From contig JAJXZJ010000059.1 of the NCBI GenBank assembly GCA_021780105.1, positions 3,230 to 67,229 of the forward strand: a DNA stretch of 64,000 nt. The letters run 5' to 3'. How positions within the stretch are numbered: the first letter of the stretch is position 1; every line of letters begins with the position of its first letter. Below, piece after piece: positions 37,538 to 44,244 of this stretch. Made by a program: the position numbers and the translations under genes. The notes below the pieces were generated by a model. It did not search any database and had not been told where the DNA came from. It saw only the letters and a program-made list of their open reading frames with translations. This stretch comes from a bacterium. Lineage in GTDB: Bacteria; Verrucomicrobiota; Verrucomicrobiia; Limisphaerales; J093.

Positions 37538-38749
37538 TCACCCACCGCCAGCAGCGCTCCCACCGGAAGGCGCGCCGGCGGGAGCAGCGGCGGCGGATTG
37601 TTTGATCCACGCGCAGACGGCCTCCAGCACGGCTGGATCCTCGTAGGCCGCGCTGTGCGTGAGCGGCGTGCCCTCGGCGTCCCCGGACACCGAGGCAAAT
37701 AATTGCACCAGCCAGCGGCCGGGCGGCGTGGCCTCGGCGGTCACCTGCATGAACAGGCCGATTGCAAACGCCTCCGGCCCGAACGGCAGGGTCAACACAC
37801 CCACCGCCGGCATCAGCAACACGAACGCCCCGCCGAGCAGCAGGTAACGCAACGTCCCGGCTGCAAACAGCGTCAGATACACCATCGGCCCCAGCAAACC
37901 ACCCGCGAGCAGCGAAACCAAAATCACACCCAGCCGGCTCATGTCCGGCGCCGCCTGCCGGCCGATGATCCAGTCGGCCACGGCCCAGCCGACGAGCGCG
38001 GCGAGCGCGAGTTCAAACCAGGACAGGCGGTTCTTCCGCCGTTCCTCCCAGGCTTCCCATCGCTTGTTGAGACTGCCCAGGAGCGGTTCGATCAGCGAAC
38101 CCGCCAGCGCGCAGGCGCTCAGCACCGCGCCGGCCTCGTCGCCGCTGTGGCGGAGGATCAAGAGTTGGTTTTCGCGCAACGGCGGAAGCCGCATCCGGTC
38201 CGCCAGGAGCCGCGCCTTGTCGGTCAACCAGTGGAACAGCCCGTAACTGACCGGCCAGATGACGATGGAACTGAGAAACATCCACGATTCCGTGGTTTCC
38301 TTGAGGCCAAATTTCGCGAGGATCCAGACCCAGGCGGCAATCATCGGCGCGAGTTGCGCGGCCAGGAACAGCCGGTTGTGTTCGCCTTCAAACCGGCGCC
38401 GCTTCACCAGCAGAAACGGCGTCGAGAGGCAGACCACGCCGGCCACGCGCGCGGCCAGGCCGGCGTCATTGAGCGCCCCGAGCGCAATGTTGCCGCCGTG
38501 GCTGTGACCAATGATGAACTGCGCCGCATCCGGGTTTCTTTGGACGGATGCCGCGACGCTCGCTGCCGCGGCCTCGACGGCGCGGAAACGGTCCTTGAAG
38601 CGGTTACGGCCGGTCCAGTTGATGGTCTGGAACTCCACGTTGGTGCCCAGCTCACGCGCCAGCGCCTCGCGCAAACGGGAGCCGGGCTGCACCCACGGGG
38701 CGTGCGGGGCAAACGTGCCGTGAACCAGCGTGACCACGCATTTGCTCAT
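37538..38749 (-). CDS. Alpha/beta hydrolase interrupted by a multi-helix membrane insertion
   Basis: ATG at 38749. VTLVHGTFAPHAPW, FQTINWTGRNRFKDR and the nucleophile elbow IIGHSHGG. About 230 aa of hydrophobic helices follow. C-terminal TPLTHSAAYEDPAVLEAVCAWI is a candidate catalytic His segment. Confidence 0.65.
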   Translation of the reverse strand: MSKCVVTLVHGTFAPHAPWVQPGSRLREALARELGTNVEFQTINWTGRNRFKDRFRAVEAAAASVAASVQRNPDAAQFIIGHSHGGNIALGALNDAGLAARVAGVVCLSTPFLLVKRRRFEGEHNRLFLAAQLAPMIAAWVWILAKFGLKETTESWMFLSSIVIWPVSYGLFHWLTDKARLLADRMRLPPLRENQLLILRHSGDEAGAVLSACALAGSLIEPLLGSLNKRWEAWEERRKNRLSWFELALAALVGWAVADWIIGRQAAPDMSRLGVILVSLLAGGLLGPMVYLTLFAAGTLRYLLLGGAFVLLMPAVGVLTLPFGPEAFAIGLFMQVTAEATPPGRWLVQLFASVSGDAEGTPLTHSAAYEDPAVLEAVCAWIKQSAAAAPAGAPSGGSAAGGG

Positions 38750-38859
38750 GCCGATCCGCAAGGCTAACGGAGACCGGCACGAAACGCAACGCCACCGGGC
38801 CCCCCCGTCGGGCCGGCGCGGCGCGGCCGCATGACACACCGTTGCCGTGGCTCCGGAAC

Positions 38860-39560
38860 GCCCTCAAGAAAGGCCTTCCGGTTCAGCCCGAAGGCGCCCG
38901 GAACTGGTATCCAGGCTTGAGTCCGGGCTGGTGCGCACGCGCAGCTCGGTCATCAACCGCATTTTGTAAGTTGAGACGGTATTTGCCCGGCCGGAGTTGC
39001 AGCGCCGCCTCCTTATTGCTCAGATTCTGGCCAGCAGCCTGAAGACCTGAAGTTCCTGATCGCTCAGGCTGAGCAAAACCGGAGGCCGGGCCAGCCTCCG
39101 GCTCGGTTTCCTTCAAATCCAAGACTTTCGTCATCAGTTGACTCGCGCTTGCCCGGCTGGCCGAGCTTGCCGCTGTGGATGCGGCGGATGGCCTGCAAGA
39201 CGTGTTCGACCGGTTCGTCTTGCATGAGGGTATCCCCGGGCGCCGGCATGCAACCAGCGGCGGGCATACAAGGCTTCGCACACACAAGCGTTGTCCTTTT
39301 AGGGTCTTGGTTTCTGCCTTGCGCTTTACCGGGTTCACTTGTTCACCTCAGTATCAGCCATGATGCCATCCATCTTCGCTGAAGCTTCAGGCCATTATCT
39401 CAGCAGGAACTGGTCAATCTCCGGTAACACGCTGCGAGCCGTTGTAGCCGGCCACGCGGCAAAAGGGATAGATGGAGTCCGGCCGTAGATTCCGCCTTCG
39501 GCCCGGCGATATTTCATTCCATGAGCGGGGGGCGCATTTTGCCCGCGGACTCGTGGGCTT
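38860..39560 (-). pseudogene. NarL/LuxR-family response regulator, multiply frameshifted
   Basis: Recognisable pieces lie in different frames: EALYARRWLHAGARGY (about 39230..39277), LMQDEPVEHVLQAIRRIHSGKL (about 39163..39228), LSLSDQELQVFRLLA (about 39030..39075), TVSTYKMRLMTELRVRTSPDS (about 38920..38981). Compare the intact paralogue at 11087..11761. Confidence 0.55.
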
Positions 39561-39611: not shown

Positions 39612-39685
39612 TGGCTGTCCGACCAGGATTTGAACCTGGACTAAAGGCTCCAAAGACCTCTGTGCTACCATTACACCATCGGACA
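39612..39685 (-). tRNA. tRNA-Gln (anticodon UUG), CCA encoded
   Basis: Hand-folded 74 nt: TGTCCGA TG GTGT AATGGTA GCAC A GAGGT CTTTGGA GCCTT TAGT CCAGG TTCAAAT CCTGG TCGGACA G CCA. U1:A72 and G73 are typical of bacterial tRNA-Gln. Confidence 0.85.
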
Positions 39686-40694: not shown

Positions 40695-41150
40695 TTAGTA
40701 ATCAAAAATGTGGAAGCGGCTGCCTGGAACGAACGGCACAATGTCGCCACCGCTGAAACCGGTGTGATTGTCCGGCTCGAATGTCGTGTCGGAAATCAGC
40801 GCCGGCGAGTAGCTGTCCGGGAAAGCTGGTCCCACGGTCGCATCGGGCAGGATCGGCCCGCCGGGGCGCAGGATCGGGTCGTAGCTGGGAATGGGGAAGG
40901 TGATAATCTCGTAGGCGCCAACGAGGGTCCGGACCATGCTGCGGTCGAAGCCCTTGATCACGCCGCTGGTGTAGGCCACAGACGGACCATCGAAGAGCGC
41001 CGTCTGCTCGACCGAGCGCCGGATCTCGCCCAGGCGGGCAAATTCGGTCGCATTGTTGATACCACGGCCCAGTTTCTTCTCCGGGCCGGCGCAACCGACC
41101 GCGAAGGCCGCCATGAGGCCGGCGGCGGCGAGTGTCCAAAGCTTACGCAT
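40695..41150 (-). CDS. Lipoprotein resembling the exosortase system-associated TIGR04073 family
   Basis: Lipobox AFAVGCAG. KKLGRGINNATEF...GVIKGFDRSMVRTLVGAYEIITFPIPSYDP matches my memory of the family pattern (KLGRG..N...G.YE..TFP.P). Confidence 0.6.
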   Translation of the reverse strand: MRKLWTLAAAGLMAAFAVGCAGPEKKLGRGINNATEFARLGEIRRSVEQTALFDGPSVAYTSGVIKGFDRSMVRTLVGAYEIITFPIPSYDPILRPGGPILPDATVGPAFPDSYSPALISDTTFEPDNHTGFSGGDIVPFVPGSRFHIFDY

Positions 41151-41226: not shown

Positions 41227-44200
41227 TTATTGCGCTGGCGCCGGCTCAGAAAAGTCCCCGGTCCGGACCCGATACTCAACGCCTTTTTCCGCGGGCGCAA
41301 GCCCATAGCGGATCATCATCTCCCTCGACATCATAGTCTTCGGAGGTATTGGCCGCGGCCAGGCTCCCGCCAACGCCTCGCCGGGCCGGTCATGCATCAG
41401 CCCACACACGCTGCCGTTGGCCAGCGCGTAAAACCGCTGCCACCGGCCGTCGGTGCTGGGCACGACCGCCCGCGATCGGGCGATGATGGTGTCCGGCGCC
41501 TCCCGCAACCGGTGCTGCAATGCCGTCTTGTTCGGCACTACCACTTCGACGTCGCCCCAGTTCACAGCCGGGGCAAGATTCGTCAGCGCTGGGTTGAGCC
41601 GGCCGTCGCCCAGAGACAGCGGCTCCGGCCGTTCGTCGAGGGCAAAGACGCGCAGCGCCAGGCTCGCCTGCCGCATCTGGTCCAACTCGGCATGCGCCAT
41701 CGCGGCGGCGACGATGACCGGCGGGTTGGTTTCGGTGATCAACGTCGTCGGGAAATTGGTTGCTCCCGCCGCGGTTTGCTGGCCCCACAGCGTGAAGACT
41801 GGATTTTCACTGGCCCCGGGCGGCTCCCAACTTAGCGGCCAGATCGCATTGGCGTTCGGGCGCGGGGCTGGCGGGTTTGTGTCGCCTCCGGTTCGGAGCG
41901 TCATGCCCGCCGGCAATTTGACCAGGCCGTAGCGGATCATCATCCGGAGGTCCATCATCGGGCGTGGCGGCTCGGAGAAAACGCCCGTCAGGGGTGAATC
42001 CGGTGTCGTCTCCATCCGCCATCGGACGCTGCCGTCGGCCAGCGCATAAAATCGTTGCCAGGCGTGGCTGGAATATTCCACCGCGGTTTGGGAATAGGCG
42101 ACGATCGTCTGCGATTGCTCGCGCACGGCGTGATCCAACGCGGCCGTGTCGGCAAGCGGCACCTTCACGTCATCCCAATTCAGGTCGGGCGCCGCGGCGG
42201 TAACCAACGGGTTCAACCGGCCGTCGCGAAGGAGCGGTTCCTGTGGGTGATTCAACAAAAACAAGTTGAGTGCCGACGCAGCCTGCTCGGTTTCGTAGTG
42301 CGCCAGCAGTTCCACATGGCCGGTGGCCCGCACCACCATTTGGATCCCGCGCGGCGAGTTGATCCGCAGCAGGACCGCCTCCGGCAGGGTCCGGTCGGCG
42401 CTGGGCAGGACGGTGGCGTCCATGCCGTCGTAGTCCTGAACATCCGCGCTCTTGAGGAAGCCTTGGGCCACGAGGTTGGTCAGCGGCAGCGTTGGTGGCA
42501 AGGTCTGTCCGGTCGTCGTGGCACCACGCCGCACCGCGTCCAACGCACGGAGGATTTTGTCCGTGTTGAGCGACAAGAAACCGTTGTGTTGTAACAACAC
42601 CCGGTCCAGGCGCCACGGCGGCGGTTTCGGCGGCTGGACCAACTGGGTTTGCCGCGCGGCCGCTCTCTGGAATGCGCTTTCGCCTGCCACGGCCAAGGAA
42701 AAAAACGCGACGCACCACACGCCGATGACCAATGCCACAATTCCCATTTGCCCCAACACACGGCGCGCGCCGCGGTCCACGCGACGGAAATTGGCCAGCG
42801 CGAAACCGAGCAGCAGTGACAGCATAAGCAACGCACCAACGACCTCCAGAATCGTGGCCGGGAGAGCGAACGGCTCTTCGTGAAACACTTTCCAATCGGG
42901 AAGTGCCTGACCGAAAAGCAAAAACTTGTTGATGAACGTCCCCAACGCCGCTCCGGTCAGCACGACGGCCACCAGACTCGACAGCAGCGCGCGGACGCTT
43001 GTCTGGGACAGTGATGAAAAATAAATGGCCAGACAGCAGGCGCCGAGCACGTAGGGGGAAGAGCCGATAGCGTCGCCCGTGAACTCGCGTCGCGCTTCCG
43101 GAAACGGCGACACCAAGAGCAAAAGCAGCGGCAGTCCCACGGCGAGCACCAACGCCAGACCGCACACCACGCCCACCTTCACTGCCCATTGGCGCCACGC
43201 GGCAAGCGGCTGGATCAACTGCGAAGCTACCGTGCCGTGTTGCCGCTCCTCCGCGCAACTCAGCGCGCCCGCCAGCAGCGGAACCATGAACAGATACATG
43301 AACACCCAAACAAGTGGGTCCGTGCCGGCGGCTTCCAGATTGCCATACATCAACCGGATCATTTCCAAGACGACGGCCGCCAGCCAGCCGAGGCAGAACA
43401 AACCGGCCAGCAGGAAAGTCATTTGCTGAAGGTGAAGTTCCTTTTTCACCAGTTCCCAGACCACATTTCGGCGGCGCGGCACATCAGCAACCACCGCTTT
43501 GGCCGGCAGCCAGCGCGCCAGCCAGCGCGGCAGGCGTAACTCGGGATTGGGACCATCCAACGCCTGCAAGTGAATAAACGCGCGATAACCCAGCACCGGC
43601 GCGGCCAGCCAGTGAACCAACAACAGGACCGCGAAACAGACCTGCGTGAACGACTCCGAAAGGTCCGGGTTCGATGGATTGACTCCAAAGATGGCGAGCG
43701 CGAGCAAATTGGCGACCAGCCAGAACAACGCCGGCCAGACGGCGGTGAACACCGCACCCGCCAGCGTGCTGCGCGTGAGCAGTGTCATCCACGGCGCCAC
43801 ACCGACCGCGCTGAGAAATGCACCGCCCAGGAGCGCGAGGTAGAAAAGCAAATACCCTGTCGAAGCCCGCATCCCAAAGAAAATCACGGGAGCGGCCGAG
43901 CTGAGACAGTTAAGCAGGACAATCGCCGCCAGCACCCCGATCTTCGCGCGCCAGATCGAGGCGCGGGACCGGGGTTGGACCAGCAATAACGGCATGGTGT
44001 GGTGGCCAAACTCATGGCCGAACAAGCCGGCGCCAAGCACGAGACAGCAACCCGCGTTAAGCACCAGTTCCAGGTTGAAGCTCCGCGCATCGCCACCCAG
44101 CCGGGCGACAATCAGCACCAACAACGTCACCAGCCACAGCGGCATGAGGGCGCGGAGTTCCTTGCCGACGATGACCGGGAACACCGGCGTGCGACACCAC

Positions 44201-44244
44201 TCCGGCAGCGTGTAGGCCAGCGAGACGTTTCGCTCCGGTTTCAT
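41227..44244 (-). CDS. ABC-2-type permease (two six-helix modules) fused to a ~485-aa non-membrane C-terminal region with tandem repeats
   Basis: 1005 aa. The ATG overlaps the ATPase stop (ATGA). Residues 1 to about 520 are almost entirely hydrophobic helices. Residues from about 521 are soluble and hold two ~160-200-aa repeats. Confidence 0.7.
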   Translation of the reverse strand: MKPERNVSLAYTLPEWCRTPVFPVIVGKELRALMPLWLVTLLVLIVARLGGDARSFNLELVLNAGCCLVLGAGLFGHEFGHHTMPLLLVQPRSRASIWRAKIGVLAAIVLLNCLSSAAPVIFFGMRASTGYLLFYLALLGGAFLSAVGVAPWMTLLTRSTLAGAVFTAVWPALFWLVANLLALAIFGVNPSNPDLSESFTQVCFAVLLLVHWLAAPVLGYRAFIHLQALDGPNPELRLPRWLARWLPAKAVVADVPRRRNVVWELVKKELHLQQMTFLLAGLFCLGWLAAVVLEMIRLMYGNLEAAGTDPLVWVFMYLFMVPLLAGALSCAEERQHGTVASQLIQPLAAWRQWAVKVGVVCGLALVLAVGLPLLLLLVSPFPEARREFTGDAIGSSPYVLGACCLAIYFSSLSQTSVRALLSSLVAVVLTGAALGTFINKFLLFGQALPDWKVFHEEPFALPATILEVVGALLMLSLLLGFALANFRRVDRGARRVLGQMGIVALVIGVWCVAFFSLAVAGESAFQRAAARQTQLVQPPKPPPWRLDRVLLQHNGFLSLNTDKILRALDAVRRGATTTGQTLPPTLPLTNLVAQGFLKSADVQDYDGMDATVLPSADRTLPEAVLLRINSPRGIQMVVRATGHVELLAHYETEQAASALNLFLLNHPQEPLLRDGRLNPLVTAAAPDLNWDDVKVPLADTAALDHAVREQSQTIVAYSQTAVEYSSHAWQRFYALADGSVRWRMETTPDSPLTGVFSEPPRPMMDLRMMIRYGLVKLPAGMTLRTGGDTNPPAPRPNANAIWPLSWEPPGASENPVFTLWGQQTAAGATNFPTTLITETNPPVIVAAAMAHAELDQMRQASLALRVFALDERPEPLSLGDGRLNPALTNLAPAVNWGDVEVVVPNKTALQHRLREAPDTIIARSRAVVPSTDGRWQRFYALANGSVCGLMHDRPGEALAGAWPRPIPPKTMMSREMMIRYGLAPAEKGVEYRVRTGDFSEPAPAQ
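41245..42351 (-). repeat. Tandem protein-level duplication inside the permease gene (two copies)
   Basis: Copy 1 is aa ~632-790 (41875..42351) and copy 2 is aa ~842-1000 (41245..41721). Shared motifs: GRLNP, NW.DV.V, WQRFYALA[DN]GSV, MMIRYGL. 35/70 positions are identical in the best block (hand alignment). Confidence 0.7.

Follow-up and report, generated by a model that had tools for sequence, protein, structure and literature searches.

A widespread bacterial family of predicted alpha/beta hydrolases with membrane helices at the lid positions of the fold

Few enzymes have been studied as thoroughly as the alpha/beta hydrolases. The lid is known to vary between them, and some members are tethered to a membrane by a terminal helix. 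Here we describe a gene on the minus strand of a 64,000-nucleotide stretch of DNA from a Verrucomicrobiota bacterium (contig JAJXZJ010000059.1; this whole stretch is called the window). The available models support the view that its 403-residue product, the window protein, forms one alpha/beta-hydrolase fold in which the residues of the predicted catalytic triad, Ser83, Asp204 and His365, are separated along the chain by membrane helices. Literature searches found no earlier description of a fold of this type with its lid positions built from membrane-spanning helices.

Several described systems share part of this architecture. PGAP1 (Bst1), the glycosylphosphatidylinositol inositol deacylase (PF07819), resembles the window protein in being polytopic and in having a lipase-type alpha/beta domain whose Ser-Asp-His triad removes an acyl chain from a membrane-embedded lipid. 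The helices of PGAP1 lie outside the fold and its lipase domain is luminal. In its cryo-electron microscopy structure, the triad residues S327, D407, and H443 belong to one contiguous lipase domain, accompanied by 10 transmembrane helices and a jelly-roll domain (PMC10761859). In the window protein, by contrast, the helices interrupt the fold and the catalytic domain is predicted to be cytoplasmic. PGAP1 is the most frequent specific Pfam match among the 42 relatives collected for the family (28 of the 42, all weak), but the window protein itself scores 19.1 bits against a cut-off of 24.3, over the elbow region 71–128 only, and does not qualify as PGAP1-like.

A second membrane-bound comparison is PlaF of Pseudomonas aeruginosa, which reportedly has a single anchor helix at its N-terminus and an uninterrupted catalytic domain on the periplasmic side. 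The published account presents PlaF as a membrane-bound phospholipase A1, an inner-membrane alpha/beta hydrolase proposed to degrade and remodel the phospholipids of its own cell (PMC9132575). This is the kind of role proposed below for the window protein. Unlike PlaF, the window protein has no N-terminal helix, carries five hydrophobic helices inside the fold, and has a predicted cytoplasmic domain. It is therefore not of the PlaF type, and no sequence match to PlaF was seen. In the lipid-droplet-associated hydrolase LDAH, also of the alpha/beta type, a hydrophobic insert in the cap region targets the protein to a lipid surface. Weak matches to the corresponding Pfam family (PF10230, LIDHydrolase) occur in 4 of the 42 members, but LDAH is eukaryotic, monotopic on a monolayer, and has a much shorter insert, and the match of the window protein itself is not significant.

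The remaining comparisons are with soluble lipases. The family I lipases (P. aeruginosa LipA, 1ex9; Burkholderia, 1tah/1ys1/2es4; Acinetobacter LipA, 9g8u) and Bacillus subtilis LipA (1i6w) are among the best Foldseek matches of both structure models described below. Like the window protein, they begin the fold directly at the HG oxyanion strand and have an elbow of the G-H-S-x-G-G type; the elbow of P. aeruginosa LipA is presumably also GHSHGG. They differ in being secreted soluble enzymes with an amphipathic lid or none, and in lacking membrane helices. In a search of the PDB with the family profile, the family I lipases appear at E 0.04–0.2, which is not significant. Monoglyceride lipase, a soluble peripheral protein, is an esterase of lipids with a small helical cap that makes contact with the membrane. 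It is the top Foldseek match (human MGLL, 3jwe/3hju; Mycobacterium tuberculosis MGL, 7ozm; E 3.7e-4 and 2.7e-5 for the two models) and is also matched by the family profile in the PDB over the elbow-to-beta6 region, but the TM-score on the query is only 0.25–0.35.

The gene is a single 403-residue open reading frame (ORF) that starts with ATG at 38749 and ends with the stop codon at 37538–37540, and exactly the same 403-residue product has been called in three public assemblies (ENA, NCBI GCA_027452625.1, and Logan). An alternative GTG start at 38839 is possible and would add 30 residues, which have no counterpart in the homologues. No signal peptide was found in the window protein. The opposite strand carries an overlapping ORF of 354 residues, rich in Arg, Gln, and Pro (37703–38767, plus strand), which is almost certainly an antisense artefact of the GC-rich DNA and not a gene. 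The features of the gene, in window coordinates, are as follows, with the evidence for each in brackets.

37538..38749, minus strand: whole gene, predicted polytopic membrane alpha/beta hydrolase of 403 residues (ORF translation, identical public calls, full-length homologues)
38381..38749, minus strand: residues 1–123, first half of the core, with strands beta3–beta6 and helices A–C (Pfam matches, AlphaFold2, covariation)
38714..38722, minus strand: H10-G11-T12, putative oxyanion-hole motif ending beta3 (conservation; the next loop covaries with the His loop)
38492..38509, minus strand: G81-H-S83-H-G-G86, nucleophile elbow, with Ser83 at 38501–38503 (conservation; position directly after strand 76–82)
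38195..38380, minus strand: insert 1, residues 124–185, predicted two-helix hydrophobic hairpin (AlphaFold2, hydropathy, pattern of Lys plus Arg)
38132..38164, minus strand: residues 196–206, strand beta7 and D204-E205-A206, with Asp204 at 38138–38140 (conservation, AlphaFold2, covariation)
37751..38020, minus strand: insert 2, residues 244–333 (AlphaFold2, hydropathy)
37778..37855, minus strand: helix 5, residues 299–324, ending in P322-F323-G324 (hydropathy, conservation of G324, covariation)
37586..37750, minus strand: residues 334–388, second half of the core, with His365 at 37655–37657 (conservation, AlphaFold2, covariation)

The family to which the window protein belongs is large and widespread, not a rarity. 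A word-indexed search returned the 42 relatives mentioned above, most of which cover 94–99% of the query at 28–36% identity, with one at 67%; they are mostly full-length, and E ranges from 1e-43 to 1e-165 for the full-length ones. A profile search against 1.84 billion cluster representatives (50%-identity clusters) gave 8,749 clusters at E ≤ 1e-3 and 2,774 at E ≤ 1e-30, and nearly all of the best 150 matches are ~340–600 residues long and aligned over almost their full length. In a scan of species-representative genomes, 324 relatives were confirmed in at least eight phyla: Acidobacteriota, Verrucomicrobiota, Planctomycetota, Pseudomonadota (Alpha-, Beta-, Gamma-, and Deltaproteobacteria), Actinomycetota (including Micromonospora and Kitasatospora), Bacteroidota (including Mucilaginibacter, Chitinophaga, and Algoriphagus), NC10, and Gemmatimonadota. 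Candidate culturable hosts that carry a homologue include Paraburkholderia tuberum or P. phymatum, Methylobacterium crusticola, and Chitinophaga dinghuensis. The large majority of the fetched loci contain one uninterrupted family ORF of ~370–480 residues. The family was not found in E. coli genomes, plasmids gave one weak match only, and a search of the long members for domain fusions yielded none that was informative. The family gene behaves as a stand-alone gene with a patchy distribution. Two metagenome-assembled genomes carry more than one copy. In a Hyphomicrobiaceae genome, two family genes stand in tandem (L067:159-2697, plus strand; ORFs of 419 and 470 residues, both above 200 bits), which is a local duplication, and another genome (JANNFT01) has two separate family loci, L029 and L048.

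Public databases label members of the family as ‘hypothetical protein’, ‘pimeloyl-ACP methyl ester carboxylesterase’, or ‘Serine aminopeptidase, S33’. In Pfam, the window protein passes one model, Abhydrolase_6, marginally and in its N-terminal part only (26.4 bits against a cut-off of 26.3), while Hydrolase_4, Abhydrolase_1, and PGAP1 stay below their cut-offs. The matches to Abhydrolase_6, Hydrolase_4, and PGAP1 are all confined to residues 1–123. Across the 42 members, weak matches recur to Hydrolase_4 (at E ≤ 0.01 in 38 of them), Abhydrolase_1, PGAP1, Abhydrolase_6, and Lipase_3, and occasionally to LIDHydrolase, DUF676, Tle3, and LCAT. NCBIfam holds no named family for the window protein and gave only a chance 14-bit match to a leader-peptide model, and no family among the PADLOC-DB defence models matched at E ≤ 1. 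Sequence searches of the PDB with the single protein, the family profile, and the elbow peptide found nothing significant, only weak generic matches in the elbow region. By structure, the best Foldseek matches in the PDB are human monoglyceride lipase, the family I lipases of Burkholderia, Pseudomonas, and Acinetobacter, cutinases, Rv3802c, and mycobacteriophage LysB, together with some thioesterase domains. No solved structure with the whole architecture was found by Foldseek in the PDB, and a viral structure library added nothing. Literature searches on the GHSHGG motif, on membrane-embedded or polytopic alpha/beta hydrolases, and on bacterial PGAP1-like proteins did not turn up a description of it either. 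The preliminary description of this DNA had not recognized the architecture as a named family, and Pfam, NCBIfam, PADLOC, and the literature bear this out.

The same description had read the N-terminal part of the protein as the start of an alpha/beta hydrolase, had named ILRHSGDEAG as a possible acid-bearing piece, and had placed a candidate catalytic His at the C-terminus, with the two ends forming one hydrolase fold. Its quoted motifs are all present in the window protein: VTLVHGTFAPHAPW (residues 6–19), FQTINWTGRNRFKDR (residues 40–54), IIGHSHGG (residues 79–86), ILRHSGDEAG (residues 198–207), and TPLTHSAAYEDPAVLEAVCAWI (residues 361–382). These assignments agree with the structure prediction. 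The AlphaFold2 model of the window protein, built with the 42-sequence alignment, has a mean predicted local distance difference test score (pLDDT) of 85.5 and a predicted TM-score (pTM) of 0.81; for the short homologue P0007 the values are 87.9 and 0.86. In the first half of the model, strands run over residues 4–9 (followed by H10-G11-T12), 38–43, 76–82 (followed by Ser83), and 102–108, with a short strand at 114–117, and helices over 25–34, 51–71, and 84–92. Strand 196–201 leads to Asp204, which ILRHSGDEAG contains, and is followed by helix 205–239. The second half (residues 334–388) has strands at 334–337 and 347–351 (beta8), the E339..P342-P-G344 segment, the His loop around His365, and the last helix, 372–388.

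The elements are in the canonical order of an alpha/beta hydrolase, with the nucleophile after beta5, the acid after beta7, and the His after beta8, and the order is the same in P0007. The elbow G81-H-S83-H-G-G86 fits the pattern Sm-x-Nu-x-Sm-Sm and lies directly after beta5. In 258 aligned family members, S83, H82, and H84 are invariant (100%), as is P111; G86 (99%) and T110 (97%) are nearly so. The acid region is conserved to a similar degree (D204 98%, E205 98%, A206 94%), H365 is present in 94% of the members with mostly gaps in the remainder, and the putative oxyanion motif is strongly retained (H10 96%, G11 97%, T12 97%). W19, W45, N49, and R54 reach 98–99%, followed by P342 (94%), G324 (89%), W381 (86%), and E339 (81%).

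Covariation offers an independent test of whether both halves belong to one fold. Mean-field direct-coupling analysis was applied to 312 non-identical family sequences (effective number 280), and 14–19 pairs exceed the maximum of the column-shuffled control alignments. Couplings connect beta3 with beta5 (V9-I79, T7-Q77), beta5 with beta6 (F78-G104), the beta6 region with beta7 (F112-I198), and beta7 with beta8 (I198-W346). Beta6 is also coupled to the last helix (V106-V378) and to the His loop (V106-L363), and the oxyanion loop to the His loop (A17-S366, A14-S366). Further top couplings are S109-A368 and R200-E339, the latter between two conserved charged residues. Half of the 14 best pairs (7) link the N-terminal half or beta7 with the C-terminal 70 residues. 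The top couplings, together with the pTM values, support one domain in which the active site is assembled: both halves of the chain would contribute to one sheet, and the triad residues would come together.

The membrane part of the protein had been described as a single insertion of ~230 residues. The membrane insertion stands, but it is not single: there are two inserts, at residues ~119–190 and ~228–333, with strand beta7 and the acid residue between them, as the short soluble piece noted in the preliminary description had hinted. Insert 1 lies between beta6 and beta7, the classical place of the lid, and is present in essentially all members. Insert 2 lies between the helix after the acid and beta8. 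AlphaFold2 builds helices at 124–147 and 151–185 in insert 1 (helices 1 and 2) and at 244–265, 272–296, and 299–323 in insert 2 (helices 3–5), followed by a short helix at 325–333. Kyte-Doolittle averages over 19-residue windows exceed 1.5 at 126–147, 244–263, 270–298, and 298–328, with values up to 2.3. The five or more hydrophobic segments noted previously correspond to five long AlphaFold2 helices and to four regions by hydropathy; helix 2 (154–175) falls under the threshold in the window protein (mean 0.93). Helix 2 is hydrophobic in 286 of 322 members and helix 1 in 279 of 322. Helix 5 is the most hydrophobic helix and is hydrophobic in 305 of 317 members.

The covariation, too, singles out the end of helix 5. 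High-ranking couplings there are F13-P322 and L210-F323, both above the maximum of the shuffled controls, as well as C213-P322, V115-P322, L215-P322, and L113-A327; N49-G324 is weak, and additional couplings from residues 309–321 to core residues are mid-rank and noisy. The residues that covary with helix 5 (F13, L113, V115, L210, C213, and L215) are all hydrophobic. These couplings put the conserved Pro-Phe-Gly that ends helix 5 at the rim of the active site, a term used here for the oxyanion loop together with the segment that follows beta6 and the helix that follows Asp204. The active site would thus face the membrane, as far as the covariation between helix 5 and this rim indicates.

The predicted orientation follows from the distribution of positive charges. 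The mean number of Lys plus Arg residues is high beside the catalytic domain (2.4 before helix 1, 3.5 after helix 2, and 2.6 in residues 228–243) and low between the helices (0.7 in loop 1–2, 0.2 in loop 3–4, and 0.2 in turn 4–5). In 74 homologues with an extra N-terminal helix, the values are 0.24 before and 2.5 after it. By the positive-inside rule, this distribution suggests that the catalytic domain is on the cytoplasmic side. A buried soluble cap made of the hydrophobic helices was considered as well and was rejected on the hydropathy of up to 2.3, the positive-inside pattern, and the extra N-terminal anchor of the 74 homologues.

If all five helices spanned the membrane, beta8 would be on the opposite side, and therefore one of them cannot cross. 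About 10% of the members have no room for one helix in the 228–271 region. In the AlphaFold2 model of P0007, a helix of 40 residues follows the Asp, and helices 3–5 are replaced by one hydrophobic helix of 35 residues that ends in the same conserved Pro-Phe-Gly. Based on these observations, helices 1–2, which are family-wide, and helices 3–4, which occur in most members, would be membrane-spanning hairpins, while helix 5 is probably a hydrophobic cap or portal helix at the inner-leaflet interface that caps the active site. The short variant without the hairpin of helices 3 and 4 is found in P0007, P0004, and ~30 other members (e.g., L014, L028, and L039), and it may be the ancestral or minimal form of the family.

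We consider it probable that the window protein is an integral inner-membrane serine hydrolase of a lipase-like kind, an esterase or acyl-transferase acting on lipids of the inner leaflet. The proposal starts from what is established here, namely the gene, its conserved architecture and triad, the one fold, and the lipase-like nearest folds. The catalytic domain would be one globular unit on the cytoplasmic face of the membrane, with the intact residues Ser83 in the elbow, Asp204 after beta7, and His365 after beta8 as the triad and an oxyanion hole formed by the HGT loop and residue 84. Both positions at which soluble relatives carry a lid would be taken by membrane helices, residues 124–185 after beta6 and residues 244–333 after the acid-bearing strand. 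Helix 5 (299–323) would return to the rim of the active site and line a hydrophobic route that leads from the inner leaflet to Ser83, forming an acyl-binding cap with the nearby hydrophobic residues. The substrate is likely a lipid; it would be an ester-linked lipid drawn from the cytoplasmic leaflet, for example a phospholipid, a lysophospholipid, or another acyl-lipid. By the ordinary acyl-enzyme mechanism, with acyl-Ser83 as the intermediate, its acyl chain would be cleaved off or transferred. As a speculation, the conserved polar cluster of W45, N49, and R54 after beta4 might hold the polar head group.

A more specific version is possible but doubtful. In it, the family would be a distinct structural class in which the lid has been replaced by membrane-spanning hairpins and a hydrophobic portal helix, and a lateral opening to the bilayer would deliver the substrate to the cytoplasm-facing site.

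Several observations weigh against the proposed fold, topology, and function. Sequence profiles (Pfam) detect the N-terminal half only, even when the inserts are removed in silico; the matches of this insert-free core stop before the Asp/His half, so that sequence models by themselves cannot show collinearity. Likewise, hhalign against B. subtilis LipA (sequence identical to 1i6w_A) gives no significant result with the full family or with the core; for the insert-free core the probability is 21% and E is 2e-4, with the Asp region roughly aligned and the His region not. The Foldseek matches are partial and weak, with a TM-score on the query of at most 0.35. The column-shuffle control of the covariation analysis is lenient, since it takes no account of phylogeny. 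If each of the five hydrophobic helices spanned the membrane, the number of crossings would be odd, and the topology rests on a parity argument, the short variants, and the noisy mid-rank couplings. The membrane helices have nearly no invariant residues except G324, which fits a simple anchor no less well than a substrate gate. Finally, all-against-all clustering of the flanking ORFs at 83 loci revealed no conserved neighbour that points to a pathway.

The likeliest alternative is that the same fold and triad serve mainly as an acyl-transferase, whose water-poor site beneath the hydrophobic cap would hand the acyl chain of one membrane lipid not to water but to a second lipid or a lipid-linked acceptor. 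LCAT and the mycolyltransferases are acyl-transferases of the alpha/beta fold that work in this way. The family has weak LCAT and cutinase-family matches in Pfam and Foldseek, and the covariation of helix 5 and the hydrophobic residues with the active-site rim suggests a shielded site. Chp1 has been described as an acyl-transferase that is cutinase-like and associated with the membrane (PMC3318749). A feature for binding an acceptor was not identified, biosynthetic genes are not among the neighbours at the 83 loci, and hydrolysis and transfer look alike at the level of sequence. We regard a mainly transferring enzyme as unlikely.

Somewhat less likely still is that the helices only anchor the protein, which would be an esterase, peptidase, or deacylase kept at the membrane, and that the substrate is not a membrane lipid but a small-molecule ester or thioester of the cytoplasm, a peptide, or an acylated protein. 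Besides the scarcity of invariant residues in the helices, this would agree with the generic Pfam matches, which include Hydrolase_4/S33 aminopeptidase and Thioesterase, with the thioesterase domains found by Foldseek, and with the conserved W45, N49, and R54, which could bind a soluble polar group. A simple anchor, however, needs no double insertion inside the fold at the lid positions, and the 74 homologues noted above add a separate N-terminal anchor helix besides the inserts. The covariation of helix 5 with active-site residues and the lipases as top fold matches also speak for the lipid-directed enzyme.

A membrane-damaging phospholipase, acting as a toxin or as a phage-defence (abortive-infection) effector that is silent until triggered, is very improbable. 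The distribution of the family is patchy, the gene in the window lies beside a tRNA and a dead regulator, one homologue is 4 kb from a Tle1-like gene, and 2 of the 42 members have weak Tle3 matches in Pfam. On the other hand, PADLOC gives no match, the 83 loci share no conserved sensor, immunity gene, or secretion system, no mobile-element genes were called nearby, the GC content is flat, and the family is rare on plasmids (one weak match). An artefact, whether a frameshift or misassembly that joined two genes or a gene that has decayed and lost its function, could be imagined from the decayed neighbouring regulator and the long spurious ORFs common in this GC-rich DNA, but it is effectively refuted because the same single, contiguous ORF is kept in ~80 genomes of many phyla, besides the three independent assemblies, with a conserved triad, confident single-domain AlphaFold2 models, and covariation that spans the whole chain.

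The surroundings of the gene in the window add two further features:

38891..39219, minus strand: remnant of a LuxR/NarL-type regulator with at least two frameshifts (frameshift-corrected composite against GerE)
39612..39685, minus strand: tRNA-Gln, anticodon TTG (ARAGORN; Rfam tRNA, 64.5 bits)

Both neighbours had been noted previously, and both are real. The helix-turn-helix of the regulator can be read only when three frames are joined; against the GerE model of Pfam, the composite reaches 25.3 bits (cut-off 23.5), while no single frame of 38891–39219 matches Pfam and the public records have no gene call there. The tRNA-Gln is the sole RNA family that ARAGORN and Rfam find in the window. 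On the strand of the hydrolase, the order is an ispE-like GHMP kinase gene, the tRNA-Gln, the regulator remnant, and the hydrolase. A glyoxalase-fold gene and the gene of a BspA-type leucine-rich repeat protein follow on the opposite strand, convergent with the hydrolase, and farther on, an M28 peptidase gene lies again on the hydrolase strand. The context had looked accessory in the preliminary description, but this impression does not hold: the GC content is uniform across the region, no mobility gene is among the called neighbours, and the homologues lie in unrelated contexts. A genomic island was rejected on the flat GC content and the lack of mobility genes called nearby. No integrase or mobile-element genes were called near the hydrolase; integrases and island-marking repeats were not sought beyond the called genes.

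Seven contexts annotated with Pfam are mutually unrelated. The largest cluster of flanking ORFs is that of PD40/Tricorn-type beta-propeller proteins, which occur within 5 kb of the family gene at 7 of the 83 loci (L004, L005, L023, L042, L046, L078, and L082), some of them fused to Ser/Thr kinase or Trans_reg_C domains. Paralogues of these proteins may abound in the lineages concerned, and their recurrence is likely a lineage effect or chance. In a single case, a Sphingomonadaceae genome (L087:7386-8660, minus strand), the family gene is convergent with a gene for a cyclopropane-fatty-acyl-phospholipid synthase (CMAS), a neighbour from lipid metabolism that did not recur at other loci.

Two other ORFs of the window were noted. 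The first (41227–44244, minus strand) encodes 1005 residues without a Pfam match and lies directly downstream of genes for a GntR regulator and an ATP-binding cassette (ABC) ATPase. Its N-terminal half is very hydrophobic, with many predicted membrane helices, and two segments that resemble each other (GRLNPLVTAAAPDLNWDDVKVP and GRLNPALTNLAPAVNWGDVEVV) lie in the C-terminal half. An unusual ABC permease-like protein is one possible identity. The second (40695–41150, minus strand) encodes 151 residues with a lipoprotein-like N-terminus (LMAAFAVGCAG), has no Pfam match, and adjoins the ispE-like kinase gene.

The window protein combines a known fold and triad with an unfamiliar lid architecture, and it introduces no new principle. 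The family merits a definition in Pfam or NCBIfam, so that thousands of genes would no longer be mislabelled. If the enzymes act on inner-leaflet lipids, they would be new players in the turnover of bacterial membrane lipids, for which the documented comparison, PlaF, is single-pass, and they would offer a compact model for the way in which the bilayer is brought into the substrate-binding site of a soluble catalytic fold. If the family is a distinct structural class, its members could be a missing deacylase or reacylase of the Lands-cycle type for phospholipids or lysophospholipids of the cytoplasmic leaflet in many soil and aquatic bacteria.

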